Program-made: the position numbers and the translations under genes
Origin: a virus
Direction: 5' to 3' (one strand)
UHGV virus genome: UHGV-0185643
DNA: 48,591 nt
Notes under the pieces: generated by a model
The model's database searches: none
The model's input: the letters and a program-made list of their open reading frames with translations, nothing else
Told to the model about the DNA's origin: nothing
Shown here: piece by piece, positions 1 through 47,731 of the stretch
How positions within the stretch are numbered: the first letter of the stretch is position 1
Layout: each line of letters opens with the position of its first letter

Positions 1-774
1 ATGTCATCAGAAAATTTTGTCACCTTCTGGCTCGCTAGAGCCGATCTTCCATACTTTCTTGAACCTCATGAATTTTACGTTTCGGAGGCCAAGCGTAGAC
101 TTCTATCGCAGTTTGGCGATTTAGAACAAGAAGCAGAAAGGAGGGAACAACAGTATTTGGAAGCTACCTCAAAATATTTCGATCCTGATAACGATGATCC
201 AATGGCTGCCTACGAGCAAGCCTACCACGTGGGAATTAATTATGTATGGTCGCTTCTGGAGATGCAAAATACCGTGTTGTTGGCATTAACGGCAGGAATG
301 TACCACCAGTTTGATAAAAAACTAAGAGAACACACCATCAAAGAACTAAGTAACTGGTGCAAAAGAGAATTAATTACTCCCATGATCTGGAATATAACTT
401 TCCATCAGCTTATTGATTTACTCGAATGGATTGGCCTCAAAATCAATGGAACCGGATACGGAGAGAGGATCAAAGCCTGTAACTTGGTAGTAAACGTATA
501 CAAGCATGGGGACGGGCCTGCGCATCAAACACTATCATTCAATCATCCTGAGTACTATCAACACCCTACCGATGTTCGAGGTACGCAGAACATACATGAC
601 CATGATGATTTACATGTATCAGAAGAGCAATTTGTAGAGTTTGCTGACGCAATAACTGAATTCTGGAAAGCAGTTCCAGAGAATTGCTATTACTCAGATC
701 TCAAAGAAGAACCCAAATGGTTGAGTAAAGTCGTAACAAAATTCGATAAAAAACAGAAGGGAAATAGGGACTAA
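1..774 (+). CDS. Hypothetical protein (257 aa), AT-rich cargo-like gene; may be 5'-truncated by the window edge
   Basis: ORF begins with ATG at position 1 and runs to a stop at 772-774; no motif I recognise. Confidence 0.4.
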   Translation: MSSENFVTFWLARADLPYFLEPHEFYVSEAKRRLLSQFGDLEQEAERREQQYLEATSKYFDPDNDDPMAAYEQAYHVGINYVWSLLEMQNTVLLALTAGMYHQFDKKLREHTIKELSNWCKRELITPMIWNITFHQLIDLLEWIGLKINGTGYGERIKACNLVVNVYKHGDGPAHQTLSFNHPEYYQHPTDVRGTQNIHDHDDLHVSEEQFVEFADAITEFWKAVPENCYYSDLKEEPKWLSKVVTKFDKKQKGNRD

Positions 775-2143: not shown

Positions 2144-3700
2144 TCAATTTTGCTGGCTACCTTTCAGCGTCTCAATCACATTCTTCAGGGAATTGAGTTC
2201 AGACATCTGTTCCTTCATCGCTCTGCCCATATAAACCATAGCGCATGCCATATCGGCCATAATGACATTATTATCAAGGGCAAGGGTATCGTCTTTGAGA
2301 CCAACCTCAATCTGATGGTCAACATATTCGTTACCGGACTCATCCACACCAACAACGTCCTCAAAAACAGGTCCACCAGGCACTATCTTTACGTACTGCG
2401 GATCAACTTTAGTCAGATCCTGGGCAATAAGGCCAAAACGCTGTGTATCCGACCCCTTATACTTAAACATGGTCGGTAACCACTGCATGACACGGTCGAA
2501 ACTGTCTTTCCCGTCCCGATATTGGATATCTTCTTTTAGATCGCGGTCTGATGTCGCATTCTTGGCGAACACGTACGATCCCTGCCAGTTTGACCCGGAT
2601 TCGTTCCATACGTCAGTAGTGATATCACCAGACTGAGGATTGAATCTGAACATCCTGTGATATCTGGCATCGCCCATAAAATGTAAGACGCCATGTGGCC
2701 AGCCATTGGCACCATTAGAAATGAGTCCCAGTGACAGACGAGTACTCCACCCACCCGATGCAGAAGAACCACCAGAAACGATTGGAGCCCAGCCACCATC
2801 ATTTCCACCAACAATGGCGGACCAGTAAGGGGTGGTCCATGGACCATCAACATCCCCCCAGCCACCCGATCCGCACTGTCCCCAGAAACCACGTGGTGAT
2901 TGTATAACCCCACCATAACCAGAAAGAAAGTTGAAACGGTATGTGTTCGCTCCTGCTCCAAAACTATTCGCGATTAGAGCAATGGCATCCAGATAATTAC
3001 CCGCACCTCGTATCCCGCCAAACTGATAGAACGAATTCCCCATCCACCCCTGCAGCTGGTTCATCATCCAGCCCAGTTCACCATCAACGTTATTCGACGT
3101 CAGTAAAATATCCTTCTTGACGCCAGCAGTGCTTTTGACGCCTGTACCCGACCCACCCGCCACCGAATTGACGCCACGGGTGCCAAGAACACTACCGAAC
3201 GTAACATCCTGAGAGTTTCCCAAAGTGAGATTATCGCGGGCCGCATTTTTATCAGGCAGATCGGCCAGGGCCTGGCTTTTCAACAAAGCATTATTGATCT
3301 GATCAATAATGCTTTTCCATGATGGTCCTGTAAACTCCGTATTGTCAGGAAGCCTGACAGTAATATTGCCGTTCGCAGAGAATAAAAGTTGCCAGTTCTG
3401 TTTGTCGTAATTCAGCCCCCGCAGCGCCTCCGTGTTCTGCACCACCATTGCGGCAGTAACCATATTCAGCGCCACACGAGGAACAGCTGACCAGGCCGCG
3501 CCAGATTGGGTTGGCCCGGTGTAATTGCTGACCAGCGTCAACGCTGTACCACTTTCCACGGACTTAACCGGAAGCGTATAGGGAACACCACCGACCGTAA
3601 CAACAATAAAATCTCCGGCCGCCACCTCAGTGGTAAACGCGGTCCCGCTGCCAGCGACCGCAGCCGAGTTATTCATCAGGGTTAATGTTCCTGCTGACAT
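2144..3700 (-). CDS. Tail fiber protein with C-terminal S74-type intramolecular chaperone (self-cleaving) domain
   Basis: Gly/Ser-rich repeats; C-terminal SDRDLKEDIQ...RFGLIAQDL...VDPQYV motif typical of endosialidase-chaperone domains; AGGAG RBS upstream of ATG. Confidence 0.75.
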   Translation of the reverse strand: MSAGTLTLMNNSAAVAGSGTAFTTEVAAGDFIVVTVGGVPYTLPVKSVESGTALTLVSNYTGPTQSGAAWSAVPRVALNMVTAAMVVQNTEALRGLNYDKQNWQLLFSANGNITVRLPDNTEFTGPSWKSIIDQINNALLKSQALADLPDKNAARDNLTLGNSQDVTFGSVLGTRGVNSVAGGSGTGVKSTAGVKKDILLTSNNVDGELGWMMNQLQGWMGNSFYQFGGIRGAGNYLDAIALIANSFGAGANTYRFNFLSGYGGVIQSPRGFWGQCGSGGWGDVDGPWTTPYWSAIVGGNDGGWAPIVSGGSSASGGWSTRLSLGLISNGANGWPHGVLHFMGDARYHRMFRFNPQSGDITTDVWNESGSNWQGSYVFAKNATSDRDLKEDIQYRDGKDSFDRVMQWLPTMFKYKGSDTQRFGLIAQDLTKVDPQYVKIVPGGPVFEDVVGVDESGNEYVDHQIEVGLKDDTLALDNNVIMADMACAMVYMGRAMKEQMSELNSLKNVIETLKGSQQN

Positions 3701-3724
3701 GGATATCTCCTGAATTAAGATAAT

Positions 3725-3752
3725 AAAAAACCCGCCGGAGCGGGTTATTTTT
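3725..3752. terminator. Bidirectional intrinsic terminator between the lipoprotein moron and the tail fiber gene
   Basis: Stem CCCGC / GCGGG flanked by an A-run upstream and T-run downstream. Confidence 0.6.
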
Positions 3753-3758
3753 GGTATT

Positions 3759-3998
3759 TCATTGAGGGCAATTCGAACTGGTGAAATTATTTTTATTCAC
3801 CCATCGCCAGTTAAAGGGATAACCGGCCCTGTACTCAGTCTGATTAACAACTTTTTGCACACCGTAAATTTGCACTGACTGGGGCTGTCCACCAAGCACT
3901 AACTCAGCCTGACAAACCGGTTTCTGTTTCTCCAGAACAGGTCCTGAACAGGCTGAAAGCACCAGGCAGACAATAACTGGAATAATTATATTTTTCAT
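3759..3998 (-). CDS. Small lipoprotein (79 aa, lipobox LSAC) moron between tail-fiber-region genes; candidate superinfection-exclusion (Cor/Llp-like in position) protein
   Basis: N-terminal signal peptide MKNIIIPVIVCLVLSAC with lipobox; AT-rich flanks; own terminator downstream. Confidence 0.6.
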   Translation of the reverse strand: MKNIIIPVIVCLVLSACSGPVLEKQKPVCQAELVLGGQPQSVQIYGVQKVVNQTEYRAGYPFNWRWVNKNNFTSSNCPQ

Positions 3999-4106
3999 TT
4001 CGATACCAGAGTTAATTATTTAAACAAAAAATAACCAATGGCATTGAATAATAAAAATAGTTTTAATAGATCAATATTCTAAAATTGATCGTTTAAATCG
4101 ATCAGT

Positions 4107-4781
4107 TTAATCATATGCAGCTGTGTTTATCGCCGTTATCACAATTCCACTATTTGTCGTACCGATTGAAGAGCCGCTTGCTGTTGTTGATGTAAGTCCT
4201 TTTATTCTCGTTCCCGCACCTTCATTGAAGCAACCTGTACCCACATCCACAGACTGAATGATTGGCTGTCCACCAGGTGCCGAACCAGCATGAAGGAGAA
4301 CAGATCCCAGCCCCATCGGATTTATGGCCCATTTGCCTGCCATGTATGTATCAATGTTAAGCCCACCACTTACAGCACCTGGTGAACCAATAGTTGTAAG
4401 GTCGCTTAATACCCGGGACTCATTCGTAAGTACCAGTGTCCCTTCGGCATCCCATATAGCCACCCCCCAGGCAGGAAGCGTAAGCGGATATATGGCAAAA
4501 AAATAGGCCTCAAGGACAAAAGCCGATCCCCTGTAATTAGACGCATTAACACTGAACGTATTGCCACTTTTTGAAGCTGATATCTTCGCCGGGGCGCTGG
4601 TTCGTGCAAATGCAATCCCTCCCTTCTGACCGTCGATAGTAACAGACGCCGAAACACTGTTAAAATTCCCCCCAAAAGTTGAGTTTACAGTGACTTTCCG
4701 GTAAAGCGTCATTGGTGTGGAATCAGGCGTGATAAAAGGGTTCCCGTTAGGTAATGAAATCAATGCGCCATATTTAGCCAT
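4107..4781 (-). CDS. Hypothetical tail-associated protein (224 aa) downstream of J
   Basis: ORF translationally coupled to the preceding ORF; Gly/Ser/Thr-rich; no recognisable motif. Confidence 0.5.
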   Translation of the reverse strand: MAKYGALISLPNGNPFITPDSTPMTLYRKVTVNSTFGGNFNSVSASVTIDGQKGGIAFARTSAPAKISASKSGNTFSVNASNYRGSAFVLEAYFFAIYPLTLPAWGVAIWDAEGTLVLTNESRVLSDLTTIGSPGAVSGGLNIDTYMAGKWAINPMGLGSVLLHAGSAPGGQPIIQSVDVGTGCFNEGAGTRIKGLTSTTASGSSIGTTNSGIVITAINTAAYD

Positions 4782-5096
4782 CTACGCAGTCTCCGCAAAA
4801 ACGATTAACTGCACTTTGACTGCCGGGTAATCATTAATCCCATCACTACCTGAAGGCTGTATTGTTATGGTGTTTCCAGATGCAATAATATTTCTTTTAT
4901 CTGTGTAACTTATTGTCCCTTTATCCTCCAGAGTACCAACCGCAAAACCGACCTTTAAACCGGGCTCGAGGTTGAACTGGTAGCTTCCCGTTTTCTGACC
5001 TAAAGCAAGATCGATGATTCCCACCACGGTTACAGGTTTAATGCCATAGTTATTCGGGACACCGTTAGCGTCCCATGTCTGAATTCCCCATGTCAT
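4782..5096 (-). CDS. Hypothetical tail-associated protein (104 aa) immediately downstream of J
   Basis: ORF start overlaps the J stop codon (coupled). Confidence 0.5.
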   Translation of the reverse strand: MTWGIQTWDANGVPNNYGIKPVTVVGIIDLALGQKTGSYQFNLEPGLKVGFAVGTLEDKGTISYTDKRNIIASGNTITIQPSGSDGINDYPAVKVQLIVFAETA

Positions 5097-8000
5097 CAGA
5101 ATACCCCTGTTAATTTGCCAATCTGCACGCGGAGAACGCCATTGCCATCTTTAACGCTGTAATTCAGATTGGTCATTTTCGTTGCCCCCTCCCCGGCAAC
5201 AGCCCCATTCATTTCAAACGTTCCGTCTGATTTCATAATGGTGCCTGTTTGTCCCTGAACATAATTAGCGGAGCGCAGTTCGCCAATTTTTGCCAGAGTG
5301 ATTTGACTATACTGAATAAAAGCATCGCTGATAAACACCTGACCATTAATAGAAGCAAACGGAGAATATTGTGTATCACCGCTGCCACTCATCAGGACGA
5401 ACTGATTGGCGTTAAAGCCGACACGGGTGACTACCGGCTTACCCGCTTCGGCCAGCACGGCAATCGACATCCCGGCGTTATACATCACACCGTTTATTCG
5501 AACTCCGGTTTTAAGAGTGTAAATTGCAGATGCCCCGGTCGCATCAACCACGGCGGTGAGCTTATCTTCCAGCGCGGCAGTCACATCATTGAACTGCGCC
5601 TGCACCTGCGTCGACATTTCAGCCATGGCTTTATCGACCTGCGCAATGGTCGTTTTAACCACCAGAATATCCGCGCGTACCTCGCCGTACTGCGCCCACT
5701 GGTGTTCCACGGTTGCATGGTTGGCCAGCGCGTTCTGCAATGCGGCTTCGAGATTGGTATCAATGTCGCCAGTCAGGCGGTCACCGTCGGCAGATGTCAG
5801 GAAGTCATCAGCAATATCGCCCAGGTAGTCGTCAGCATTCGCATTAGATTCACCACGAACCCAGTCGGTCCAGTCACTCTGATTACCAATGCGATCAACC
5901 AGACGAGCCCGGTACCAGAACTCCTGACCTGCCTTCAAACCCAGTTGGGTATATGTGTGTTGAGGATACGGAACTCCTGCAAGCAGCAGAGGATTATCCC
6001 CATTTCCGTTTGCTGAATACTGCAGTTCGGTCTGGAGAGTATCACCTGTATCCGCCGGAAAGGACCAGTCAGCCTGTATGCCCCAGTTGATTGCTGTGGT
6101 GCGCAGACCAACCGGCTTGGGAACATCCCCAGTACGTCCAGTGAGATGAGTCAGCACAGAAGAGGTCCACAAACTGGACGCTCCACCAGAGTTAATGGCG
6201 CGGACTCTCACGAGGTAATCGCCTGAGAAAATCCCGGCGATCTCTATATTGCGCAAGCCTGTTTCGGGAATGTTGATCCACTCATTATCACCACGTTTCC
6301 ACTGTGCCTGATACGCGACAATATCCGCCTGAGGTTTCCCGTTTTTATCTACTGGCGCATCCCAACTCGCAACCATGGTTGCAATACGCTGCCCCTGCCG
6401 GACCGAGTCGTAACTGCTAATCGCGATATTCGTGGGCTGGCTAACCAGGCCTATCGGTAACAGACTAATCGGCGGCGTATCCAGCCGGGCGTTGTTATCA
6501 ACGGCATCGTACTTAGCCCCGTTGTACTCTGCACCGGTGATACTGTAGGTGTTCTCTTCATCGTTAAATGTCAGATTGGTTACACGGAAATACTGGAGGC
6601 GCAACTGGCCTGCATCGATAACAAAAATGGCATTAGGTTGTGGCTCAGCGGTAAAGGCAGTAGCCAGTATCAGTTGCTGGCCGTTAACCGCCTGAATGGT
6701 TCTGCTCTCAACGGTACCGCCCAGGGTACGAATCATCAGCGTATCACCCGCCACCGCACTCGTGCCGCGATCGGTAGTTACTGACTTCAACCCTGCATCG
6801 TAATCAGTAATACGTCCACCATAGACACGCCCAGACAGCCGCTCATCTGCAAACGCAAATACGGTCCCCGGCACATAAGCGAAGCCATCGAGTCCCGTCT
6901 GGACAGTGATAATACGGTCCAGAGAATTGGAGTACACTGCCCAACCACCCCGGCGCTGAGCTTCGCTTTCACGTGTGCAGCCAATCGCGGTTAGCTGAGT
7001 CTGCTTAAACTTGAACTGCTTAACCAGATCGGGAAACATCACTGCAGTAGTGCGATCCTGATAGTGGTTATCCGGGTCACTAAAGTTAATCAGCGCTGAG
7101 CTATAGCGATTCTTTTCACTGCCGCTGGAATAGGTTGGTTTCCCGACCACAGAGGCACGGGTGAGGATCTGAAGTTTTGACGTATCCGCAGGCATATCAG
7201 AGACAACATTGAACATGTTGTTGCCCCAGAAAGTCATTCCGTTGAAGCCCGCGGCAATATCTTTAATCACCTGCCAGGCATCAGCCTGGGACTGGATGTA
7301 AACGTCAAACATGAAGCGTGGCTCGGTAACGCTTCCGCCTTTCCCGTCGGGTACCTTCTGGTCGCAGCGCTGGGCGATGCGATAGAGCTCCCACTTATCG
7401 AGCATTTCTGGCGTCACGCGGCGCCCAAGACCGAAGCGCGGCTCAGTCACAACATCGAACCAAATCCACGCCGGGTTATTCGTCCAGCCCCATTTAAACG
7501 TCCCGTCCCATGTTCCGCTATAAGTCCGCGCTATTGGATCATAGTTCGAAGGGATTCGGATGATGCGCCCCTTCGGCATGCAGGAAATCTTAGGGATGTT
7601 GTTGAATGACTTTGCGTTAAAGGACACGTACAGCAGCGCTGTGTGTGGATATCGTAGGCGAGCATCGATCACCTCAGTAATCGCTTGCACCTGCGTTTTG
7701 TTCTGCAGCATCTGGCTGGTGCTGTCATCGGTGTCACGCACCACTCGAATTTGCCAGCCAGTGCTGGCTTTGGGAAGATTAATACGGTGGGTTAGTTCAT
7801 AGAGCGAACTGAGCTTCTCTGTGACGGTTTTAGTCATGACTGTCGAGTAAGCGCCACCGTCCACCGCAAGGTCAATATGGTACTGAACCGTGGTGCCGAC
7901 AATATCCCCATCGTTTTCCTGCTGCTGTAACCCAGGGATGCCAATACGAACCAGCACCGCGTCAATCTGGGTGTTACTCAGTGCGCGGGTCCATGGTGTG

Positions 8001-8305
8001 GCCTTTGTCAGCGATACGCCAACCGTAGTTTCATTCTCGACTGCAGGGAATCCCGGTATTGGTGTCTGTGTCTGTGTGCCAGGCCGGAATTCCCATGACA
8101 CATTTTCAAAATTCATCGTTCCGTCGGGGTTTCCCAACGGCGTACCGTCCAGGAATATCCGGGTCGCATCCAGGCCACCAGCAAACTCACCCTCCCCGAG
8201 CGCCAGCAGCATGCGGCAGCGCGCCATTGACTGAGCCGAATCGGGCTGTTCTACAGGTGTATGCTGCTTCTGGCTGCCACCCTTTGCACCAGTGATCACT
8301 TCCAT
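5096..8305 (-). CDS. J: Host specificity / central tail fiber protein J
   Basis: About 1069 aa; N-terminal MEVITGAKGGSQKQHTP resembles lambda J N-terminus; position after I; start trimmed to the internal Met so it does not overlap I. Confidence 0.85.
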   Translation of the reverse strand: MEVITGAKGGSQKQHTPVEQPDSAQSMARCRMLLALGEGEFAGGLDATRIFLDGTPLGNPDGTMNFENVSWEFRPGTQTQTPIPGFPAVENETTVGVSLTKATPWTRALSNTQIDAVLVRIGIPGLQQQENDGDIVGTTVQYHIDLAVDGGAYSTVMTKTVTEKLSSLYELTHRINLPKASTGWQIRVVRDTDDSTSQMLQNKTQVQAITEVIDARLRYPHTALLYVSFNAKSFNNIPKISCMPKGRIIRIPSNYDPIARTYSGTWDGTFKWGWTNNPAWIWFDVVTEPRFGLGRRVTPEMLDKWELYRIAQRCDQKVPDGKGGSVTEPRFMFDVYIQSQADAWQVIKDIAAGFNGMTFWGNNMFNVVSDMPADTSKLQILTRASVVGKPTYSSGSEKNRYSSALINFSDPDNHYQDRTTAVMFPDLVKQFKFKQTQLTAIGCTRESEAQRRGGWAVYSNSLDRIITVQTGLDGFAYVPGTVFAFADERLSGRVYGGRITDYDAGLKSVTTDRGTSAVAGDTLMIRTLGGTVESRTIQAVNGQQLILATAFTAEPQPNAIFVIDAGQLRLQYFRVTNLTFNDEENTYSITGAEYNGAKYDAVDNNARLDTPPISLLPIGLVSQPTNIAISSYDSVRQGQRIATMVASWDAPVDKNGKPQADIVAYQAQWKRGDNEWINIPETGLRNIEIAGIFSGDYLVRVRAINSGGASSLWTSSVLTHLTGRTGDVPKPVGLRTTAINWGIQADWSFPADTGDTLQTELQYSANGNGDNPLLLAGVPYPQHTYTQLGLKAGQEFWYRARLVDRIGNQSDWTDWVRGESNANADDYLGDIADDFLTSADGDRLTGDIDTNLEAALQNALANHATVEHQWAQYGEVRADILVVKTTIAQVDKAMAEMSTQVQAQFNDVTAALEDKLTAVVDATGASAIYTLKTGVRINGVMYNAGMSIAVLAEAGKPVVTRVGFNANQFVLMSGSGDTQYSPFASINGQVFISDAFIQYSQITLAKIGELRSANYVQGQTGTIMKSDGTFEMNGAVAGEGATKMTNLNYSVKDGNGVLRVQIGKLTGVF

Positions 8306-11011: not shown

Positions 11012-12625
11012 ATGAATATTGTGCATTATGCAGCCATTGGAGCTGTAGCTTTCGTAGTTGTTCTAACAATTTTGGTGATAAACATCATTAAATTAAAGTC
11101 AGCCAAGGCTGATGCAGCAGAAAAGGCGGCAAAACTTGAGCGTTACGCGTCAATCACCAATGCTGAAACAGAAGCTGAACGAATCGTGAATGCAGCTAAG
11201 CAAACCGCAGAAGAGTTAATTATTGATTCGCAGAATAACCTTGACGAGGCAAAAGCTGAAGCAGCCAACACTATTGCAGCCAGTGAAAAAGATGCAAGAT
11301 CTATAACACAGCGTGCGGAGGATATTCTATCAGATGCGCGTTTAGCAGCTAAGCGAATGAACGCAGAGGCGCTGACCGCTGTAGAAACACAAAGAGTCAA
11401 GCGTGCAGAAATTGAAAAACAGATTGATGAATTGCGTAAATCCTATCGTGAGAAAAAAATCACTTACGATGAGCTGACGGAAGCCCTGTCAATTTATAAA
11501 GATGATATGGAATTTGCTGACATGGGGTTCTATGCACCACACTTCGATTTTGATACCTCGGCTAGTTTTCAGGATGCGATCAAGGCATGTCGCGAACGGC
11601 AAAAAAATCTGCTACGTGACAAAACTGAATTTGGCGCAATACATTGCCCTACTGAATGGACGGTTGGCGGCTCTAAAAGTGAAGGTCGGAAAATGACCAC
11701 TCGCGGCATTCAGATGACAGCACGTGCATTCAATGGTGAGTGTGATGCAGCTATTGCAAACTGCACATTTAAAAACGTTTATCAAATGGAGCAAAGAATT
11801 TATAAAGCCTTTGATGCCTTGAATAAGATGAATGAGGTTAACCAGATTTACATCAATCGTGCTTTTTTAGATTTGAAGCTGGATGAACTTCGACTTACAC
11901 ATGAATATCGTTTGAAAAAACAAGAAGAACGAGAAGAACAACGTGAAATCCGCGCTCAGATGGCTGAGGAGAAGCGAGCTCAAGCCGAAATTGATCGTGC
12001 ACTTCGAGAGGCTGAAGATGAAGAACGCCGCGCCCAAAAAGCGTTGGATAAAGCCCGAAAAGAAATGGAATCGAAGCTAGCCCAAATGACAGCTGAGCAA
12101 GTTGAGAAACACCAAGCGAAGGTATCCGAATTAGAACATGCCTTAGAAGAGGCATTGTTGAAAGGCCAAAAAGCTCTTTCTATGGCTCAACAAACTAAAC
12201 GCGGCCACGTGTACGTTATCTCTAATATTGGTTCGTTTGGTGATGATGTTTTTAAAATAGGAATGACACGTCGACTTGACCCTCAAGATCGAGTGGATGA
12301 ACTGGGTAGTGCATCAGTCCCATTCCTGTTCGATGTTCATGCAATGATTTTCAGTGAAGATGCACCAACAATGGAAAACATGCTCCACCAGCGTTTCAAT
12401 GAGCAACGCACTAACCTAGTTAATAAGCGTAAAGAGTTTTTCAATGTAAAATTAAGCGATATCAAAGATGCTGTGTTTGAGATCGCAGGTAAAGATGTAG
12501 ATTTTATCGAAACAGCAACTGCTCAGCATTATTATGAAACAAAGGCAATTCGTAAGCAGAAAGCGGATATCATTTCAGTTGTTCCTCAAGAGGAAAAACT
12601 ACCTAAATTTGCGGACGCAATATAA
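11012..12625 (+). CDS. Membrane-anchored coiled-coil protein (537 aa) with C-terminal T5orf172/GIY-YIG-like (MUG113-type) domain; candidate defence or exclusion effector
   Basis: N-terminal hydrophobic helix IGAVAFVVVLTILVINII; long charged heptad-like segments; C-terminal GHVYVISNIGSFGDDVFKIGMTRRLDPQDRVDEL...EFFNV motif; AGGGA RBS; transcribed against the tail operon; AT-rich. Confidence 0.6.
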   Translation: MNIVHYAAIGAVAFVVVLTILVINIIKLKSAKADAAEKAAKLERYASITNAETEAERIVNAAKQTAEELIIDSQNNLDEAKAEAANTIAASEKDARSITQRAEDILSDARLAAKRMNAEALTAVETQRVKRAEIEKQIDELRKSYREKKITYDELTEALSIYKDDMEFADMGFYAPHFDFDTSASFQDAIKACRERQKNLLRDKTEFGAIHCPTEWTVGGSKSEGRKMTTRGIQMTARAFNGECDAAIANCTFKNVYQMEQRIYKAFDALNKMNEVNQIYINRAFLDLKLDELRLTHEYRLKKQEEREEQREIRAQMAEEKRAQAEIDRALREAEDEERRAQKALDKARKEMESKLAQMTAEQVEKHQAKVSELEHALEEALLKGQKALSMAQQTKRGHVYVISNIGSFGDDVFKIGMTRRLDPQDRVDELGSASVPFLFDVHAMIFSEDAPTMENMLHQRFNEQRTNLVNKRKEFFNVKLSDIKDAVFEIAGKDVDFIETATAQHYYETKAIRKQKADIISVVPQEEKLPKFADAI

Positions 12626-12685: not shown

Positions 12686-13168
12686 TTACATGTTTTTGTA
12701 ATAGCCGACTTTAGAATCAAAGTCCTGTTTTGCGAGTGGCGTTTGGCTTGTCACATAAGTCTCCCAGGAGCTGTACGCCTCTACGAGCGCGCGCTTTTCT
12801 TCTGCATCCTTAGTACTCGATTTCATTATTTCAAACACTCCAGAAGCATTCTCTTTGCGTTTGTTTTTTCTGTTAGCGCCGCAAGTCGCTATTGCATCGG
12901 CTACAGAATTATTCCACCCAACCAACTGCAGGATCTCCATTCTCTTTTGAATCACGAACTGATCCGCAGACGCATTCCGTGCCTGAGTCGACAGGTATTC
13001 AGCAAACTCCATTTTGTTCATTGGCACTTTGGAGACTGACTCAATATTTACGTCACACTTCGAAAGCTCATCATACTTGGCTTGTTTTTGCGCGTTGTTG
13101 ACTGGACCATTGCCCGCGCACGCAGAAAGAGCCATTGCTAACACCACTGTCGTGAAGACCTTTTTCAT
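12686..13168 (-). CDS. Lipoprotein (160 aa, lipobox LSAC), moron partner convergent with the T5orf172-like gene
   Basis: Signal peptide MKKVFTTVVLAMALSAC; start chosen at the second ATG for better SD spacing. Confidence 0.55.
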   Translation of the reverse strand: MKKVFTTVVLAMALSACAGNGPVNNAQKQAKYDELSKCDVNIESVSKVPMNKMEFAEYLSTQARNASADQFVIQKRMEILQLVGWNNSVADAIATCGANRKNKRKENASGVFEIMKSSTKDAEEKRALVEAYSSWETYVTSQTPLAKQDFDSKVGYYKNM

Positions 13169-13268
13169 TATCATCCCCTGATTAGTATGGTTTTGACATA
13201 ATAACCATGGGAGGCATCGGTGTAACCAGGTACGGGTTATATTGCCATATCAGAATTTACGACGATGC

Positions 13269-41805: not shown

Positions 41806-44736
41806 ATGGAATTTCCATATGTAGTTAAAGCCACACAAAAGTCGGGAAAGCCTGATGCTTTTGTCTGGTTCACTGCAAAAACTGAGGCTCGCGCCAACCT
41901 GATGCTGGACGTTGCTCTGGAAGACGCTGGCATCGAAACCGGCCGTGGTAAGGACTACGCCAAGCCTATCCGCACTGACTTCCCAGTTGTTGATGACCTT
42001 CCGGAAGAAGGTGAAGTTGATTTCACCTGGTGTGATCGTTACGAACTGCAGGACGACGGGCGCATCTGGCTGCCAAAGGCCGCTGGCGACGTTGTCACCA
42101 CTATCCCTGCCGATGTAAAAAATACCGATGAAGTAGCGACATCTGACGAGAATGTATCGTTAGAAAACCGCACTCCAGCAGTCCGTTTTGCCTTCCATCT
42201 GATGAGCGATAAATACCAGACTCACGTCACTAAAGAGCAGCAGCTGGCTGCCAGCGAAATGTCACTGGACGAAAGCAATACCTATCTCCAGAACTTGCTG
42301 CAGGTTAAAAATGATGTTCCTGAAATTGGCGAACTCAGTCTGAATGCTGAGTGGAAAATGATTCAGGCGATTAAAGACATCTTCGAACAGGGTGAAGAGC
42401 ATGAACCTGAAGTGATCGCTGCTTTCATGTCTGACTGGGTGAACGCAGAAGCAGGTGATCGCAATCAACTGGTTGAAGACTGGCGCAGTGGAAAGTTTCC
42501 TCTGCTCAAAACTGAAACCACCAGCGTTGGTGATGAAGTCGGTCCCGAAGAACAATCTCAGCAGCCAGAGCAGCCGAACCTGATCGTCGTAGCCACCCTG
42601 CCATTCCGTCAGCGCGTACTGGCTCAGTTCATCGGTAATGGTGAATATCTCTATCACGTCGATGCCGCGCAGAAAAAAGAGATTGTCCGCCTTGAGATGG
42701 ACACTGATGACACGTACATCCAGAACCTGCTGCTGGCTGCTGAGAATGTGGAGGCATTCAAAAAAGCCATTGAGCACGATATTCATAAAGTCGTGAATGC
42801 CGTTAAGAAAGTCTTCCCTGTCGACGGTAAGAAACCGGAGCTGGCAACAGTTATCCAGTTCCTGACGGTGTGGTTCAAAACTGAATACATCGATCGCGGC
42901 CTGCTGGTCAAGGAATGGCAGAAAGGCAATCGTGTAACAACCATTAATCGCACACCTTCAGGTGCGAACGCCGGCGGCGGCATTGTCTCTGACCGAAAAT
43001 TCCCGCAAACCATTCTCGGTCTGGAGCATGAGATTGCTCTGGCGTTACGTGCCCGTGACCGCGAATTTGATATTTACAACGTCCCTCTGGATATAGAACT
43101 ACAGGCAAACTCCATCATGAATAAGATGGACGATCCCGAATGGCTGGCGACTCGAGAGAGATTCGTTTCAATTCCTGGTGGCCTGGACTACTCACGTGCC
43201 TGCATCATCGCAACAGTAAAAACCACACCAGAGGGGCTTTATGCTGATCCTGTAAAACACCAAGAATATTTGAATAGAGTACTTACGGAAACCGACCACG
43301 CCAACCCAGATCCATTGCTCGTTGATATAGCCTGCGGTCGTTCGTCTATGCCTGTACCTATGAAACAGGAAAAAGTAACGGCCGAAGAGGTAAACAAAAT
43401 TCTTGCAGCTTCCCGCGGAGAATATGTCGAGGGGATTAGTGACCCTACAGACCCGAAATGGATCACAGAAGACCTCGCATTAACCGCCCAACAAATAGAT
43501 GACCGTTCACCACTTAATAAGGAAACCACCAGCAATGTGCAGATGGAAGAAACTGTCAGTGATGAAGAGCAGTCAGGCGAAAGCAGTCTGGAAACTGGTG
43601 AAGAGTCACATACCGGCCAGCAAGCCGATGTAAACCAGAATGCGGATTCTGTCGCCCAAAATAGCGATTTTGTAAACCAAACCGAACCGGTTGCGGCACA
43701 AATCAAGCCAGAATCTCATTCTGACGAACCGGCTGTTGTGTACCCTGCTTACTTTGAGCCAGGCCGCTATGAAGGATTGTCGAACGAGGTTTATCACGCA
43801 GCGAACGGTATCAGCTCAACCCAGGTGAAAGACGCACGTGTCAGCCTGATGTTCTATCACGGCCGTCACGTGACCAAGACTATCCGTCGCGAAAGCAGCG
43901 AGGCGCTGACGTTAGGTAGCCTGGCGCACACCCTGGCCCTGGAGCCCGAAAAGCTCCACGAAGAGTTTGCGGTATTCCCAGGTATTCCGGCTGAGGCGTT
44001 TACCACCACCGACTCCATGAAGGCGTTCATTCGAGAATTTAACGCGGATAAGCCAAAGGCCGAGCAACTGAAGCTCACCGGTAAGAAAGAAGAACTTCAG
44101 GCGGCGATACGCGCGGTCAGCCCGGAGGCCATTTTCGCTGATGAATTTGAGCAGCAATGGCGTGATAGCGTTGATGGGAAAACCATCCTGTCCAGAGAAC
44201 AACTGACGCTGGCCACGGCAATTCAGCAAGCCCTACTGAATCATGAATCAGCCGGGAAACTGCTGCGCCATCCTTCCCGTTCAGTGGAAACCAGTTATTT
44301 CGGGATGGACGACGAAACCGGTCTGGAAGTCCGTGTGCGCCCTGACCTTGAGGTTGAAATCAACGGCGTTCGTATCGGTGTTGACCTGAAGACGATCAGC
44401 ATGGGACGCGTTAAGCAAGACGGTTTGCGCGCCAAACTGCACCGGGAAATCATCGACCGCGACTACCACCTCAGCGCTGGCATGTATTGCTCCGTTGCCG
44501 ACTTTGATCAGTTCTTCTGGATCTTCGTCAACAAAGACGAGGGCTACCACTGGGTGGCGGTAATTGAGGCATCGGAAGATTTGCTCGACCTCGGGCTGCT
44601 GGAGTATCAGCGCACCATGCGTGCACTCGCAAATGCGTATGACACCGATTGCTGGTCTGCACCGATAACCGAAGACTACACCGACGAACTGAACGACTTC
44701 GACCTGCGCTGCCTTGAAGCGCTGCGTCTGGCTTAA
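41806..44736 (+). CDS. recE: RecE-like exonuclease VIII (976 aa)
   Basis: Large protein immediately upstream of a RecT-like gene; acidic linker; C-terminal nuclease-like region; GAGGA RBS. Confidence 0.65.
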   Translation: MEFPYVVKATQKSGKPDAFVWFTAKTEARANLMLDVALEDAGIETGRGKDYAKPIRTDFPVVDDLPEEGEVDFTWCDRYELQDDGRIWLPKAAGDVVTTIPADVKNTDEVATSDENVSLENRTPAVRFAFHLMSDKYQTHVTKEQQLAASEMSLDESNTYLQNLLQVKNDVPEIGELSLNAEWKMIQAIKDIFEQGEEHEPEVIAAFMSDWVNAEAGDRNQLVEDWRSGKFPLLKTETTSVGDEVGPEEQSQQPEQPNLIVVATLPFRQRVLAQFIGNGEYLYHVDAAQKKEIVRLEMDTDDTYIQNLLLAAENVEAFKKAIEHDIHKVVNAVKKVFPVDGKKPELATVIQFLTVWFKTEYIDRGLLVKEWQKGNRVTTINRTPSGANAGGGIVSDRKFPQTILGLEHEIALALRARDREFDIYNVPLDIELQANSIMNKMDDPEWLATRERFVSIPGGLDYSRACIIATVKTTPEGLYADPVKHQEYLNRVLTETDHANPDPLLVDIACGRSSMPVPMKQEKVTAEEVNKILAASRGEYVEGISDPTDPKWITEDLALTAQQIDDRSPLNKETTSNVQMEETVSDEEQSGESSLETGEESHTGQQADVNQNADSVAQNSDFVNQTEPVAAQIKPESHSDEPAVVYPAYFEPGRYEGLSNEVYHAANGISSTQVKDARVSLMFYHGRHVTKTIRRESSEALTLGSLAHTLALEPEKLHEEFAVFPGIPAEAFTTTDSMKAFIREFNADKPKAEQLKLTGKKEELQAAIRAVSPEAIFADEFEQQWRDSVDGKTILSREQLTLATAIQQALLNHESAGKLLRHPSRSVETSYFGMDDETGLEVRVRPDLEVEINGVRIGVDLKTISMGRVKQDGLRAKLHREIIDRDYHLSAGMYCSVADFDQFFWIFVNKDEGYHWVAVIEASEDLLDLGLLEYQRTMRALANAYDTDCWSAPITEDYTDELNDFDLRCLEALRLA

Positions 44737-44750
44737 TGGAGGATTTGACC

Positions 44751-45791
44751 ATGCAAAATACCAACATCATTACGACCGAGCAGGCACCAAACACCATTTC
44801 CGCCAGCAACGCTGTGTTCAACGTGCAGGCACTCGGCCAGCTTACCTCTTTTGCTGAATTGATGGCGCAGTCTGTCGTCACCGTCCCCAAACACCTTGCG
44901 GGGAAACCCGCCGACTGTATGGCTATCGTCATGCAGGCTATGCAGTGGGGAATGAACCCATATGCAGTTGCCCAGAAAACACACCTGGTCAACGGTGTGC
45001 TGGGTTACGAAGCGCAGCTGGTTAACGCAGTGATCTCCAGTTCCAGCGCCATTATTGGCCGCTTCCATTACGAGTACGGCGGTGACTGGGAGAAGATCGC
45101 CGGGAAAAAAGACGGTCGTGATGAATTAGGTCTGTTTATCCGGGTTGGCGCCGTACTGCGCGGAGAAGAAGAAATTACCTGGGGCGAGCCAATCTACCTG
45201 GCAGATATCACCATACGTAACTCGCCACTGTGGAAAACAGCGCCGAAGCAGCAGATCGCTTATCTGGCAGTGAAGTACTGGGCTCGCCTGTACTGCCCAG
45301 AAGTCATCCTCGGCGTCTACAGTCCAGATGAAGTTGAGCCACGCACTGAGAAAGAGATTAACCCGGCGCCGCAACGCGTTAGCCTGGCCGATATTTCAGG
45401 TGACACCGTCACAACCACGCAAAGCGCACAGGAATCGTCGGTAAATATCGACTCTCTTGCCGATGATTTCCGCGAACGAATCGATGCCGCTCAGGATGTT
45501 GATAGTGCAAAAGCACTGCGCGCTGATATCGAAAGCGCGAAGGCCACACTCGGATCAGCCCTGTTCACCGAGCTGAAGAATAAGGCAGTGAAACGCTATT
45601 ACCTGGTTGATTCACGTAACAAGGTTGAGGCCGCGATCAACTCCCTGCCGTCTCCGGACGAACCGGATGCAGCTGAACGGTTTGGGGAAGTTGAGCGAGT
45701 TCTTGCAACTGCGAAACGTCATCTGGGCGACGAGCTGCACGATCAGTTCAGCATCACCCTGGCGGATATGAAACCGGAATACGTTGGCTAA
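44751..45791 (+). CDS. recT: RecT-family single-strand annealing recombinase
   Basis: Coupled to the recE stop (TAATG overlap; GGAGG SD before ATG at 44751); RecT-like core. Confidence 0.65.
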   Translation: MQNTNIITTEQAPNTISASNAVFNVQALGQLTSFAELMAQSVVTVPKHLAGKPADCMAIVMQAMQWGMNPYAVAQKTHLVNGVLGYEAQLVNAVISSSSAIIGRFHYEYGGDWEKIAGKKDGRDELGLFIRVGAVLRGEEEITWGEPIYLADITIRNSPLWKTAPKQQIAYLAVKYWARLYCPEVILGVYSPDEVEPRTEKEINPAPQRVSLADISGDTVTTTQSAQESSVNIDSLADDFRERIDAAQDVDSAKALRADIESAKATLGSALFTELKNKAVKRYYLVDSRNKVEAAINSLPSPDEPDAAERFGEVERVLATAKRHLGDELHDQFSITLADMKPEYVG

Positions 45792-46118: not shown

Positions 46119-46319
46119 ATGGATGATATTTTGCTGACGTCAGACCTGACCAGTCGATACAAAATCTCACGTAAAACCCTTTGGTCATGGCAAAGCACAG
46201 ACACGATGCCGCGGGGTTTTGCGAAGCCGTTCCCCGCCCCGGACTTCCCCGGTAACCCTAACCGCTGGAAGTCGGAGTCAGTCAAAGAGTGGGAAGGTGT
46301 GAAACAGCCAATTAACTGA
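46119..46319 (+). CDS. AlpA-family excisionase / transcriptional regulator
   Basis: Motif [20 protein letters not shown]; adjacent to the integrase gene; GGAGA RBS. Confidence 0.7.
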
Positions 46320-47505
46320 ACGGCTCACCGATGATGTTTTCAAGATGGCTCTGCCAAACGTGGAGCCAGTGTTTTTGATCATCGATGTAGTCATGCAGGT
46401 TATAGTGCGCCATCACGCCAACCATTTGGTGACCAAGTAACTTTTCAATCACATGCGGCGGACAGCCAAGTTCTGAAAGATTTGTTGCGATTGTTCTTCT
46501 CATATCATGGAGAGACCAGGGCTCCATGCCGGATTCTGACCAAATATACCTGGCGTAGTTCGAAGCAACTGGCGGATGAACCGGGACGTCTTTAATTTCC
46601 CCATCCAATAAGCGCTGTGAAGTGACTAAATGCTTTGTGTTGATCTTCTCAAGATGATTTTTTACCAGTCCCACCGCAGCATCAGAAAGAGCCCTTCTCA
46701 TGTGCACTCGCGTTTTGTAACTTCCAGCAGGAACTATCCATTCATTTTCATCCAGCTTGAACCATGACCTTTCGCTTAACCGAATCTCTGCCGTCCTACA
46801 GCCGGTCAACATAATAAATTTCACAAGAAACACGGACTCTATGGACATGCGGTTTTGCAGCCACCGATAAATAGCCACCAGCTCACGATCATCCAAGCGC
46901 CGCGTTCTCTTTTTCGGTTTTTGGCCAACGTCAGTGGGTAGCAATCCCTCGAGCGGATTGGTCGATATTACGCCTCGGTTAATACAGAACCTGAATGAGC
47001 GTTTGCACAGCGAAAGCATATAATGAGCCATCACCCTGCTTTCAATCTGATCAAAAACATCTATCCAGTGCCTTTTTGTCGAATTGTCGACTTTGACGTT
47101 TCGCATCGGTTCGGCGATATGCTTGGCAAATACCAACTGATAATAACCTGTCTTTGTCAGTTGATTAGCGATGCAGTGTTTCTCGATCCAATAATTGAAT
47201 GCTTCCGATACGGCCATGGAACCTTCGCGGGTCAATTTCTCCAGCTTTACTTGCTCTCGGGGATCGAGTCCTTCAGTAAGCCAGATTCTGAATTGCTGAC
47301 GCCTTTCCCTTGCCTGAGCAATACTCATTGCTGGATAATCGCCGACATTGAGTTTTACAGCTTTGCCTGCCCATCTGTACCGGTAGAAGAAAGAGACCTT
47401 TCCGGCCAGACTGATTCTTGCGTTGAGTCCGTGAGAATCTGAAATAATTTCGATATCATCGCGTTTCTTGCCAAGGGCCTTCCTGAGCTTTGTGTCAGTG
47501 ATCAT
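46312..47505 (-). CDS. int: Tyrosine integrase (P4/CP4-57-like, N-terminal arm-binding domain)
   Basis: N-terminal [10 protein letters not shown]...FFYRYRW arm-binding-type domain; C-terminal catalytic motifs HDMRRT ... LGHQ ... HY; start trimmed to an internal Met. Confidence 0.85.
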
Positions 47506-47731
47506 TGAATAGGTACACATTTGGCTTTTGAGTACGCAAAAGTGTACACAAAACTCATTGCTCAAAGATACCCACAATGTAACACTTGTACTCGGAGTGT
47601 GATAATTGGAAGGCTGAAAGGCAGGCGGCAGAAGGGTTCAACGTAACAGAACGTTTTTATGCGAAATTCTTCGAAATGGGCTGAATGACAATACAAAAAA
47701 GTATTTTAAAAACAAAACAAAAACAGACATT

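Follow-up and report, generated by a model that had tools for sequence, protein, structure and literature searches.

What does a 79-aa lipoprotein contribute to a prophage when its gene lies among the tail fibre genes, and how is the expression of such a gene controlled? The question is raised by a 48,591-nt stretch of viral DNA (UHGV virus genome UHGV-0185643), referred to below as the window, which is a complete lambdoid prophage of Citrobacter. The features of the locus, and two landmarks of the prophage, are as follows.

2144..3700, minus strand: 518-aa side tail fibre, a relative of N15 gp25 with a C-terminal Peptidase_S74 chaperone domain
3725..3746, both strands: two-way intrinsic terminator, AACCCGC-TCCG-GCGGGTT then TTTTTT as read on the cor strand (terminator scan, folding)
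3759..3998, minus strand: cor, encoding a 79-aa phage exclusion lipoprotein (ORF call, profile matches, alignments)
3999..4106, minus strand: AT-rich intergenic region (108 nt, 21–22% GC) with the regulatory element and the presumed cor promoter
4107..4781, minus strand: 224-aa gene, homologue of N15 gp23 and phi80 gp23 (PHROG 425), co-inherited with cor
4782..5096, minus strand: 104-aa gene, homologue of N15 gp22 (PHROG 557), co-inherited with cor
5096..8305, minus strand: J-type central tail fibre (tail tip protein), its C-terminus resembling N15 gp21 and HK225
41806..45791: RecE/RecT
46312..47577: integrase

On the minus strand the order is thus J, the 104-aa gene, the 224-aa gene, cor, the terminator and the tail fibre gene, with DinI and UmuD-like genes further on; a repressor-region HTH protein and a YdaT-like protein are also encoded in the prophage, and ARAGORN found no tRNA in the window. 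At the DNA level, neither the sequenced phages nor the E. coli genomes include a close relative: megablast of positions 3301..4800 against 50,697 phage records gave no match, and in the complete E. coli genomes only J and dinI match, cor being absent. The locus thus comes neither from a phage already sequenced nor from E. coli.

The lipoprotein gene is almost certainly cor, the lysogenic-conversion gene of phi80-, N15- and HK022-type phages. Its product starts with MKNIIIPVIVCLVLSAC followed by SGPVLEKQKPVCQ...NCPQ, the residues after MKNIIIPVIVCLVLSAC beginning SGP. Codons 1–17 form the signal peptide, with the lipobox L-S-A-C, the Cys17 codon at 3950..3948 and a serine at +2, for which the +2 rule predicts sorting to the outer membrane. 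The protein matches the NCBIfam equivalog NF047972 (‘phage exclusion lipoprotein Cor’, ‘lamb_exclu_cor’) at 136.7 bits against a cut-off of 31, and over its full length (residues 1–78 on profile positions 1–77 of 78), and it matches PHROG 1119 (‘Cor superinfection exclusion protein’) with an E-value of 4e-26. Pfam holds no Cor model; its sole match to the 79-aa protein, LptE at an E-value of 0.09, is below threshold and was taken as chance. Homologues were found by tblastn in 198 phage records, all at ≤60% identity to the window Cor; those annotated as Cor include LAU1, HK75, HK542, the mEp phages, N15 and HK225, and more distant ones occur in T1-like phages. Towards the experimentally studied Cor proteins identity is 52–57% (52–60% is also given). 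Across family alignments of 18 and 32 sequences, Cys17, Cys29 and Cys77 are invariant, and G36, Y45, the AGYPFNW motif and W66 are invariant or nearly so. The exact 79-aa sequence is present on many Citrobacter genome contigs, and close relatives are named ‘phage exclusion lipoprotein Cor [Citrobacter freundii/braakii]’ by NCBI. The gene is already known and already named in public annotation, and the window adds one more Cor allele.

What the first-pass annotation had seen at this locus from its letters is confirmed in all its parts, and its interpretation, a lipoprotein that would exclude superinfecting phages by masking a receptor, is supported. The open reading frame at 3759..3998, with its 79 codons for amino acids, its LSAC lipobox and Cys17, is the lipoprotein gene that it described, the likeness to the Cor proteins of phi80 and N15 is borne out by the two profile matches given above, and by its coordinates the gene has the post-J genes on one side and the tail fibre gene on the other. 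The bidirectional terminator ascribed to the gene is equally real. Its 7-bp, GC-rich stem (3729..3746) lies 13 nt past the cor stop codon. The terminator scan reports it for both strands, with a folding energy of −13.6 kcal/mol (z −3.8) for the cor strand and of −12.4 kcal/mol for the plus strand. The terminator separates cor from the tail fibre gene, is invariant in eight related loci and stands at the same place in N15, phi80 and LAU1. Upstream, the AT-rich region is confirmed by a GC content of 21% at 4000..4099 against 45–55% in the flanks, and a spacer length of ∼107–109 nt is kept in most loci.

The designation of cor as a moron holds in part, the terminator of its own being clear but a promoter being annotated only in the phi80 GenBank record. 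Presence and replacement of cor among related phages are cassette-like, as in a moron: behind the same upstream element, a TonB_C protein takes the place of cor in two loci (L092 and L107); in ES18 the orientation of cor is inverted, and T1-like phages have it convergent. The surrounding order is shared with known phages. From J through gp22, gp23, cor, the terminator and the tail fibre to the UmuD-like gene it equals that of N15 genes 21–26, and its J-to-tail-fibre part is common to LAU1 and phi80. The gp22-like and gp23-like proteins of the window are 60% and 52% identical, respectively, to those of N15. In seven genomes with an identical Cor, the two post-J proteins are 90–100% identical, while J varies between 36 and 100% identity and, in six of the seven, identity in the distal tail fibre is only ∼20%. 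Retention of the post-J proteins with Cor while J and the tail fibre are swapped fits the receptor-specificity-module view of Maffei 2021, in which a locus for the receptor-binding protein is accompanied by a cognate exclusion protein. Cor would accordingly travel as one module with the gp22-like and gp23-like genes, a module that would end at its own terminator.

How Cor may exclude other phages is suggested by its fold. A search of the PDB sequences with the Cor profile returned nothing beyond signal-peptide matches, and no sequence homology to Llp; in structure, Cor has the same fold as T5 Llp (PDB 8a60 and 7qjf), with 11% identity in the structural alignment. A 2026 preprint also finds that models of Cor and Llp share an architecture, and calls the mechanism of Cor unsolved. 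In the literature, with reference to Uc-Mass 2004, the Cor proteins of HK022, N15 and phi80 are described as inactivating FhuA, thereby lowering ferrichrome uptake. From its sequence and established lipoprotein biology, the precursor is expected to be exported and lipidated at Cys17. Its small β-barrel domain, of the T5 Llp fold, would then bind the periplasmic side of the TonB-dependent transporter used by the phage, most likely FhuA, and lock this receptor. A locked receptor would exclude the phage itself and other FhuA-dependent phages, at the cost of ferrichrome uptake.

That FhuA is the target is probable. An unlikely alternative, though one with some arguments of its own, is that this member of the Cor family blocks another receptor to which the gp22/gp23/J module is matched, be it a different TonB-dependent transporter or a Citrobacter outer-membrane protein. 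The host is Citrobacter, identity to the characterized Cor proteins is no higher than the range given above, the gp22-like and gp23-like proteins have diverged from N15 to the extent already stated, and related lipoproteins of small siphophages are matched to different receptors, e.g. Rtp45 to LptD. However, the NCBIfam match is to an equivalog, and FhuA is the target of every member of this lambdoid Cor clade that has been studied. The last 300 residues of J, moreover, are 77–79% identical to N15 gp21 and HK225, with divergence of the C-terminus from N15 over the last ∼70 residues. FhuA is therefore retained as the probable target.

The second part of the question concerns the AT-rich spacer, where an element of ∼46 bp comprises three GATC sites and two dyads that look like OxyR half-sites.

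4088..4102, no strand: dyad 1, which the cor strand shows as ATCGATTTAAACGAT; it agrees with the OxyR consensus ATAGnTnnnAnCTAT at 8 of 10 positions, and the full inverted repeat spans 4086..4104
4057..4071, no strand: dyad 2, which the cor strand shows as ATCTATTAAAACTAT; it starts 31 bp after dyad 1 and agrees with ATAGnTnnnAnCTAT at 8 of 10 positions
4100..4103: GATC-1, in dyad 1
4087..4090: GATC-2, in dyad 1
4069..4072: GATC-3, holding the left arm of dyad 2

The full inverted repeat of dyad 1 (4086..4104) is TGATCG-TTTAAAT-CGATCA on the plus strand; its arms of 6 bp are separated by 7 nt, and it begins 2 nt past the stop codon of the 224-aa gene. The first-pass annotation had seen this repeat and had proposed it as a possible operator of the lipoprotein gene. 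The inverted repeat is there, but it had been written one base short, and the extra T of its left arm has no partner. The idea of an operator is probably correct in essence, and the repeat looks like a protein-binding site; it is only half of the element, however, and the best candidate binder is host OxyR, acting against Dam methylation, rather than a phage repressor. The dyad exceeds chance, with one occurrence of ATCGnTnnnAnCGAT in the window against 0.04 expected from shuffles, and the element is conserved across dozens of divergent loci.

Its conservation upstream of cor, which extends across the Enterobacterales, was followed in two collections. The first holds 27 genome loci from Citrobacter, Enterobacter, Phytobacter, Kosakonia, Trabulsiella, Hafnia, Kluyvera, Pseudocitrobacter, Serratia and Erwinia, with Cor at 45–89% identity to that of the window; the GATC triad (x, x+13, x+31) is present in 22 of these and begins at or just past the stop codon of the gp23-like gene. 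The second holds 59 distinct cor upstream sequences from viral contigs (IMG/VR), 54 of them with the triad. In all 54, T6 and A10 are invariant in both dyads, and positions 5, 7, 8, 9 and 11 vary. The ungapped consensus of 16 non-redundant sequences, tGATCGtTTTnAnCGATCAAT-(N9)-ATTGATCTaTtaAATCaATT, likewise has fixed arms and selected fixed inner positions, the rest being free. Fixed T6 and A10 with free neighbours make up the pattern of the OxyR dimer consensus ATAGnTnnnAnCTAT. When ATAGnTnnnAnCTAT was scored at offsets from −40 to +74 in the 16 non-redundant loci, the mean was 7.9 at 0 and 7.2 at +31, against a background of ∼3. Each dyad misses two of the ten consensus positions, those missed being 3, 4 and 13.

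The element has exceptions and can be lost. At position 10 of dyad 1, phi80 and one other locus (L018) have G in place of A; N15 is without GATC-2 and GATC-3, yet its Cor works in conversion; ES18, with its inverted cor, has no triad; and in a virulent T1-like phage the 530 bp upstream of cor contain no GATC. The loss in N15 with a working Cor, together with ES18, indicates that the element is dispensable. It also occurs elsewhere. A scan of IMG/VR for TTGATCGnTnnnAnCGATCAA gave at least 120 sites, and 72 of the 120 among the matches listed lie ∼70 nt upstream of a cor-like ORF. Also among the matches listed are one site at a P22-type gtrA and sites in front of a phage gene for a Dam methylase, of a 56-aa membrane ORF beside P2-type tail sheath genes and of a gene for a secreted protein with a TonB C-terminal domain. 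In most of the listed sites, which occur in either orientation, the third GATC recurs at a distance of 18 bp.

This pattern bears on two readings in which the block would bind no protein. In one, dyad 1 would form an RNA hairpin that weakly terminates or attenuates the J-gp22-gp23 transcript at its end, as its place just behind the stop codon, its folding at −6 kcal/mol (z −2.7) and the AUUUU that follows it in the window would allow. Such a stem is weak, however, and the T-run varies between loci (CGATCAATAACTG, CGATCAAATCAAC). Changes in the outer arms are one-sided and uncompensated (ACGATCG..CGATCAA, CCGATCG..CGATCAA), T6 and A10 are fixed in what would be the loop, where a hairpin has no need of them, and a second dyad that is unrelated to any hairpin is co-conserved with the third GATC. 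The hairpin reading is thus very improbable. Equally hard to sustain is the idea that the block is a functionless recombination linker, carried along by the gp23-like gene, whose 3′ end is conserved. The block borders on the gp23 stop codon (GAT TGA TCG) and overlaps it in many loci, and gp23 and cor are co-inherited; but conservation is patterned and non-uniform, with arms, T6 and A10 fixed and spacer positions free, and the same cassette stands in both orientations before the unrelated genes for GtrA, Dam methylase and the TonB_C protein. FhuA is Fur-regulated. A Fur box, suggested in some loci by the flanks GATAATTGAT..ATCAATTATC, was rejected when the 19-bp Fur consensus was found to match no better than it matches shuffles. 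The readings set aside (ALTERNATIVES) are therefore the RNA hairpin or terminator, the Fur box and neutral hitchhiking.

The preferred reading of the element as an OxyR site draws on the P22 gtr region. There, TTGATCG-GTAACAA-CGATCAA ... ATAGATAAAAACTAT ... TTGATCG-CTTGTAT-CGATCAA is found, with half-site offsets of 32 bp. Broadbent 2010 showed that OxyR uses these sites as half-sites (A, B and C), that it no longer binds once Dam has methylated the GATC pairs, that methylation is in turn prevented where OxyR is bound, and that gtr expression phase-varies in dependence on dam and oxyR. The arms of dyad 1 in the window, CTGATCG/CGATCAA, are those of gtr(A/C) except for the outermost position of one arm, and LAU1, phi80 and most other cor loci have the exact gtr arms TTGATCG/CGATCAA. 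The second dyad is B-like, and in the window 12 of its 15 bases are those of gtr(B). The 31-bp offset between the cor dyads fits the extended mode of binding by reduced OxyR, which Broadbent invoked for gtr.

Another regulator is a less probable occupant of the dyads, although it deserves more weight than the hairpin or the linker. Another LysR-type protein (T-N11-A) might bind there, SeqA might act on hemimethylated GATC or Dam methylation might act on RNA polymerase, and cor would then be regulated without an OxyR/Dam phase switch. ATC-N9-GAT is a generic LysR-type motif, the GATC cores are the most conserved bases, and distant loci from Serratia and Erwinia (L029, L034–L036) keep the GATC pairs with other flanks and spacings; the consensus positions missed by the dyads point the same way. 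Against this, the arms TTGATCG/CGATCAA are the same as those of P22 gtr half-sites with proven OxyR binding, the inner positions T6 and A10, which are invariant, are specific to OxyR, and the second dyad lies at the offset expected for reduced OxyR. OxyR thus remains the favoured binder.

For a site of this kind to control cor, it has to be related to a promoter. For cor of phi80, three features are annotated in GenBank record FN582354.1: ATTATA as the −35, TGGTATTGT as an extended −10 and, 26 nt upstream of the ATG, a start site. Two candidates emerge in the window.

4028..4037, minus strand: TGGTTATTTT, aligned with the phi80 cor extended −10 TGGTATTGT (by prediction and annotation transfer only)
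4074..4069 and 4053..4048, minus strand: alternative predicted promoter, with −35 TTGATC (GATC-3), −10 TATTAT and a 15-nt spacer

The −10 block of the first is kept as TGnTAT(T/C)GT in many loci, and the second scores best in the Citrobacter-type group only. A sigma-70 PWM scan of 32 intergenic regions gave weak candidates, none at a conserved position. By analogy with phi80, transcription of cor would start near 4020, and the OxyR-like site would extend from about −82 to −36 with dyad centres near −74 and −43. The stretch from −82 to −36 is the usual position of a LysR-type activator. The site would hence be placed as for an activator, and would also touch the −35.

Taken together, these data lead to a proposal for the control of cor. 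The gene would be transcribed from a weak promoter within the 108-nt spacer, directly downstream of a ∼46-bp site for one OxyR tetramer that consists of two dyads 31 bp apart and three Dam sites. Binding of OxyR and Dam methylation of the GATCs would be mutually exclusive, as at agn43 and P22 gtr, and the outcome would be either a heritable ON/OFF state or OxyR/Dam-dependent expression of cor, either sign being compatible with the sequence. Half-site dyads at helical-phase spacing, GATCs inside the half-sites and likeness to a verified half-site are all found at cor, with a half-site offset of 31 bp that compares with 32 bp at gtr and 22 bp at agn43. It is this architecture, in which OxyR binding and Dam methylation would exclude each other, that points to a heritable or OxyR/Dam-dependent expression state. 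The exceptions noted in N15, ES18, the T1-like phage and phi80 count against such a switch or restrict its reach. On balance, the sequence slightly favours the view that cor is under a Dam/OxyR epigenetic switch. Since lysogens of phi80 and mEp167 show exclusion at the population level, any OFF fraction would be small. A full-text literature search, within the literature that is open without subscription, gave no link of cor to OxyR, Dam or phase variation, and the conserved OxyR/Dam-type signature upstream of cor thus appears to be unreported.

It is tempting to extend this proposal, with more reserve, to the cor genes of temperate lambdoid phages throughout the Enterobacterales. These may be under a heritable Dam/OxyR switch by which lysogens hedge between open and blocked FhuA, the ∼46-bp GATC-triad cassette being portable before cor, gtr, the Dam methylase gene and the gene for the secreted TonB C-terminal domain; the chance that this holds is put at somewhat below even. 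If true, some cells would have an open FhuA, and with it iron uptake but also sensitivity to phages and to colicin M, while the others would be FhuA-blocked. Such a switch would account for the way in which lysogens keep down the cost that a blocked FhuA imposes on iron uptake. It would also matter for phage therapy and for antibiotics that target FhuA, albomycin among them, with resistance that would be heterogeneous and reversible. Should the signature be functional, superinfection exclusion by receptor blocking would be a further surface trait, beside agn43, gtr and opvAB, with epigenetic phase variation. The rule, GATC at x, x+13 and x+31 with two dyads, is simple enough for the genome-wide prediction of phase-variable prophage genes.

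What this analysis adds to a known gene is the explicit link between the folds of Cor and Llp and the conserved OxyR/Dam-type signature upstream of cor. The Llp-like fold provides a concrete structural model for the mechanism of Cor and makes binding of Cor to FhuA directly testable. The best overall explanation of the locus, and a probable one, is a Cor exclusion lipoprotein with an Llp-like block of FhuA and OxyR/Dam-regulated expression.

Comparison with known systems places both halves of this explanation. With the Cor proteins of phi80, N15, HK022 and mEp167, the window protein has in common its family, its size, the lipobox, the conserved cysteines and AGYPFNW, and with the phi80/N15 type its gene occupies the same slot in the series J, gp22, gp23, cor, terminator and tail fibre. 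Phi80, HK022 and the mEp phages also have the upstream GATC element. The characterized Cor proteins differ from that of the window in sequence, at 52–57% amino-acid identity, and the host of the latter is Citrobacter.

For the element itself, the closest likeness is to P22 gtr, which has in common with cor the dyad arms TTGATCG-N7-CGATCAA, GATC pairs 13 bp apart and a neighbouring ATAG/CTAT-type half-site about three helical turns away. Like cor, gtr is a prophage conversion gene that alters the cell surface and phage susceptibility. The arrangement at gtr is the larger of the two, with three half-sites, four GATCs and two alternative OxyR sites (AB for ON, BC for OFF), whereas the cor element has two half-sites, three GATCs and a single site, and its offset is 31 bp in place of 32 bp. 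In number of sites, cor is nearer to agn43 (flu) of E. coli K-12, where ATCGTTTATATCGAT is found with a third GATC 19 bp upstream. Both have one OxyR-sized site with three GATCs, at spacings of 19 and 13 in agn43 and of 13 and 18 in cor, and agn43 has one dyad of the form ATCG-nTnnnAn-CGAT. They differ in that the dyad offset of agn43 is 22 bp and its site lies downstream of the transcription start, whereas the offset in cor is 31 bp and the site, by analogy with phi80, would lie upstream. The logic of agn43, in which OxyR represses and methylation relieves repression, is one possible model for cor.

The genes for the gp22-like and gp23-like proteins form, together with cor, which encodes the exclusion lipoprotein, a single co-inherited block, with 90–100% amino acid identity between the window (4107..5096) and the compared loci L003–L010. 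J shows 36–100% identity across the loci sharing this block, and six of the seven have a distal tail fibre of ∼20% identity. The exception is L007, which is identical throughout. Since identity is maintained block-wise while J and the tail fibre vary, these sequence comparisons suggest that Cor is matched to the post-J proteins, rather than to J alone.

Besides cor, the prophage carries a PD-Lambda-1 gene within the tail-gene block, on the strand opposite to the tail genes. By its sequence matches, this ORF is a second defence moron. It is listed here with two ORFs of the window for which searches of Pfam and PADLOC gave no match.

Window 11012..12625, + strand: PD-Lambda-1 anti-phage defence protein, 537 aa (PADLOC E 5e-201; Pfam DUF4041 plus T5orf172/MUG113)
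Window 12686..13174, − strand: 162-aa ORF adjoining PD-Lambda-1
Window 1..774, + strand: 257-aa ORF at the prophage edge

The 257-aa protein is found again in L007, adjoining the same prophage end.

The element upstream of cor also precedes other genes. In the IMG/VR contigs L092 (2532..2988) and L107, the GATC-triad, OxyR-like element is followed, instead of cor, by a gene for a secreted protein of 115 aa. This protein contains a TonB C-terminal domain (Pfam TonB_C, E 3e-15) and may be a decoy disabling TonB-dependent receptors by a route other than that of Cor. Among the IMG/VR matches listed (contigs L046, L091, L051, L060, L063, L077 and others), the dyad TTGATCGnTnnnAnCGATCAA occurs upstream of a phage D12-class Dam methylase gene; in P2-like phages it is flanked by a 56-aa membrane ORF on one side and the tail sheath gene on the other. 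Most of these non-cor sites have a third GATC 18 bp away. Dyad and third GATC together resemble a regulatory cassette that is portable between phage accessory genes.

In contrast with temperate phages, the virulent T1-like phage JulesPiccard (L040 2480..3010) has no GATC within 530 bp upstream of its cor homologue, which is preceded by a small ORF and is convergent with the J-gp22-gp23 block. The triad is also absent from phage ES18 (L038 5580..6150), and N15 (L001 4860..5460) has lost GATC-2 and GATC-3 and retains dyad 1. Relative to N15, cor and a ∼170-nt post-cor segment, present in both phages and absent from the window, are inverted in ES18 as one block.
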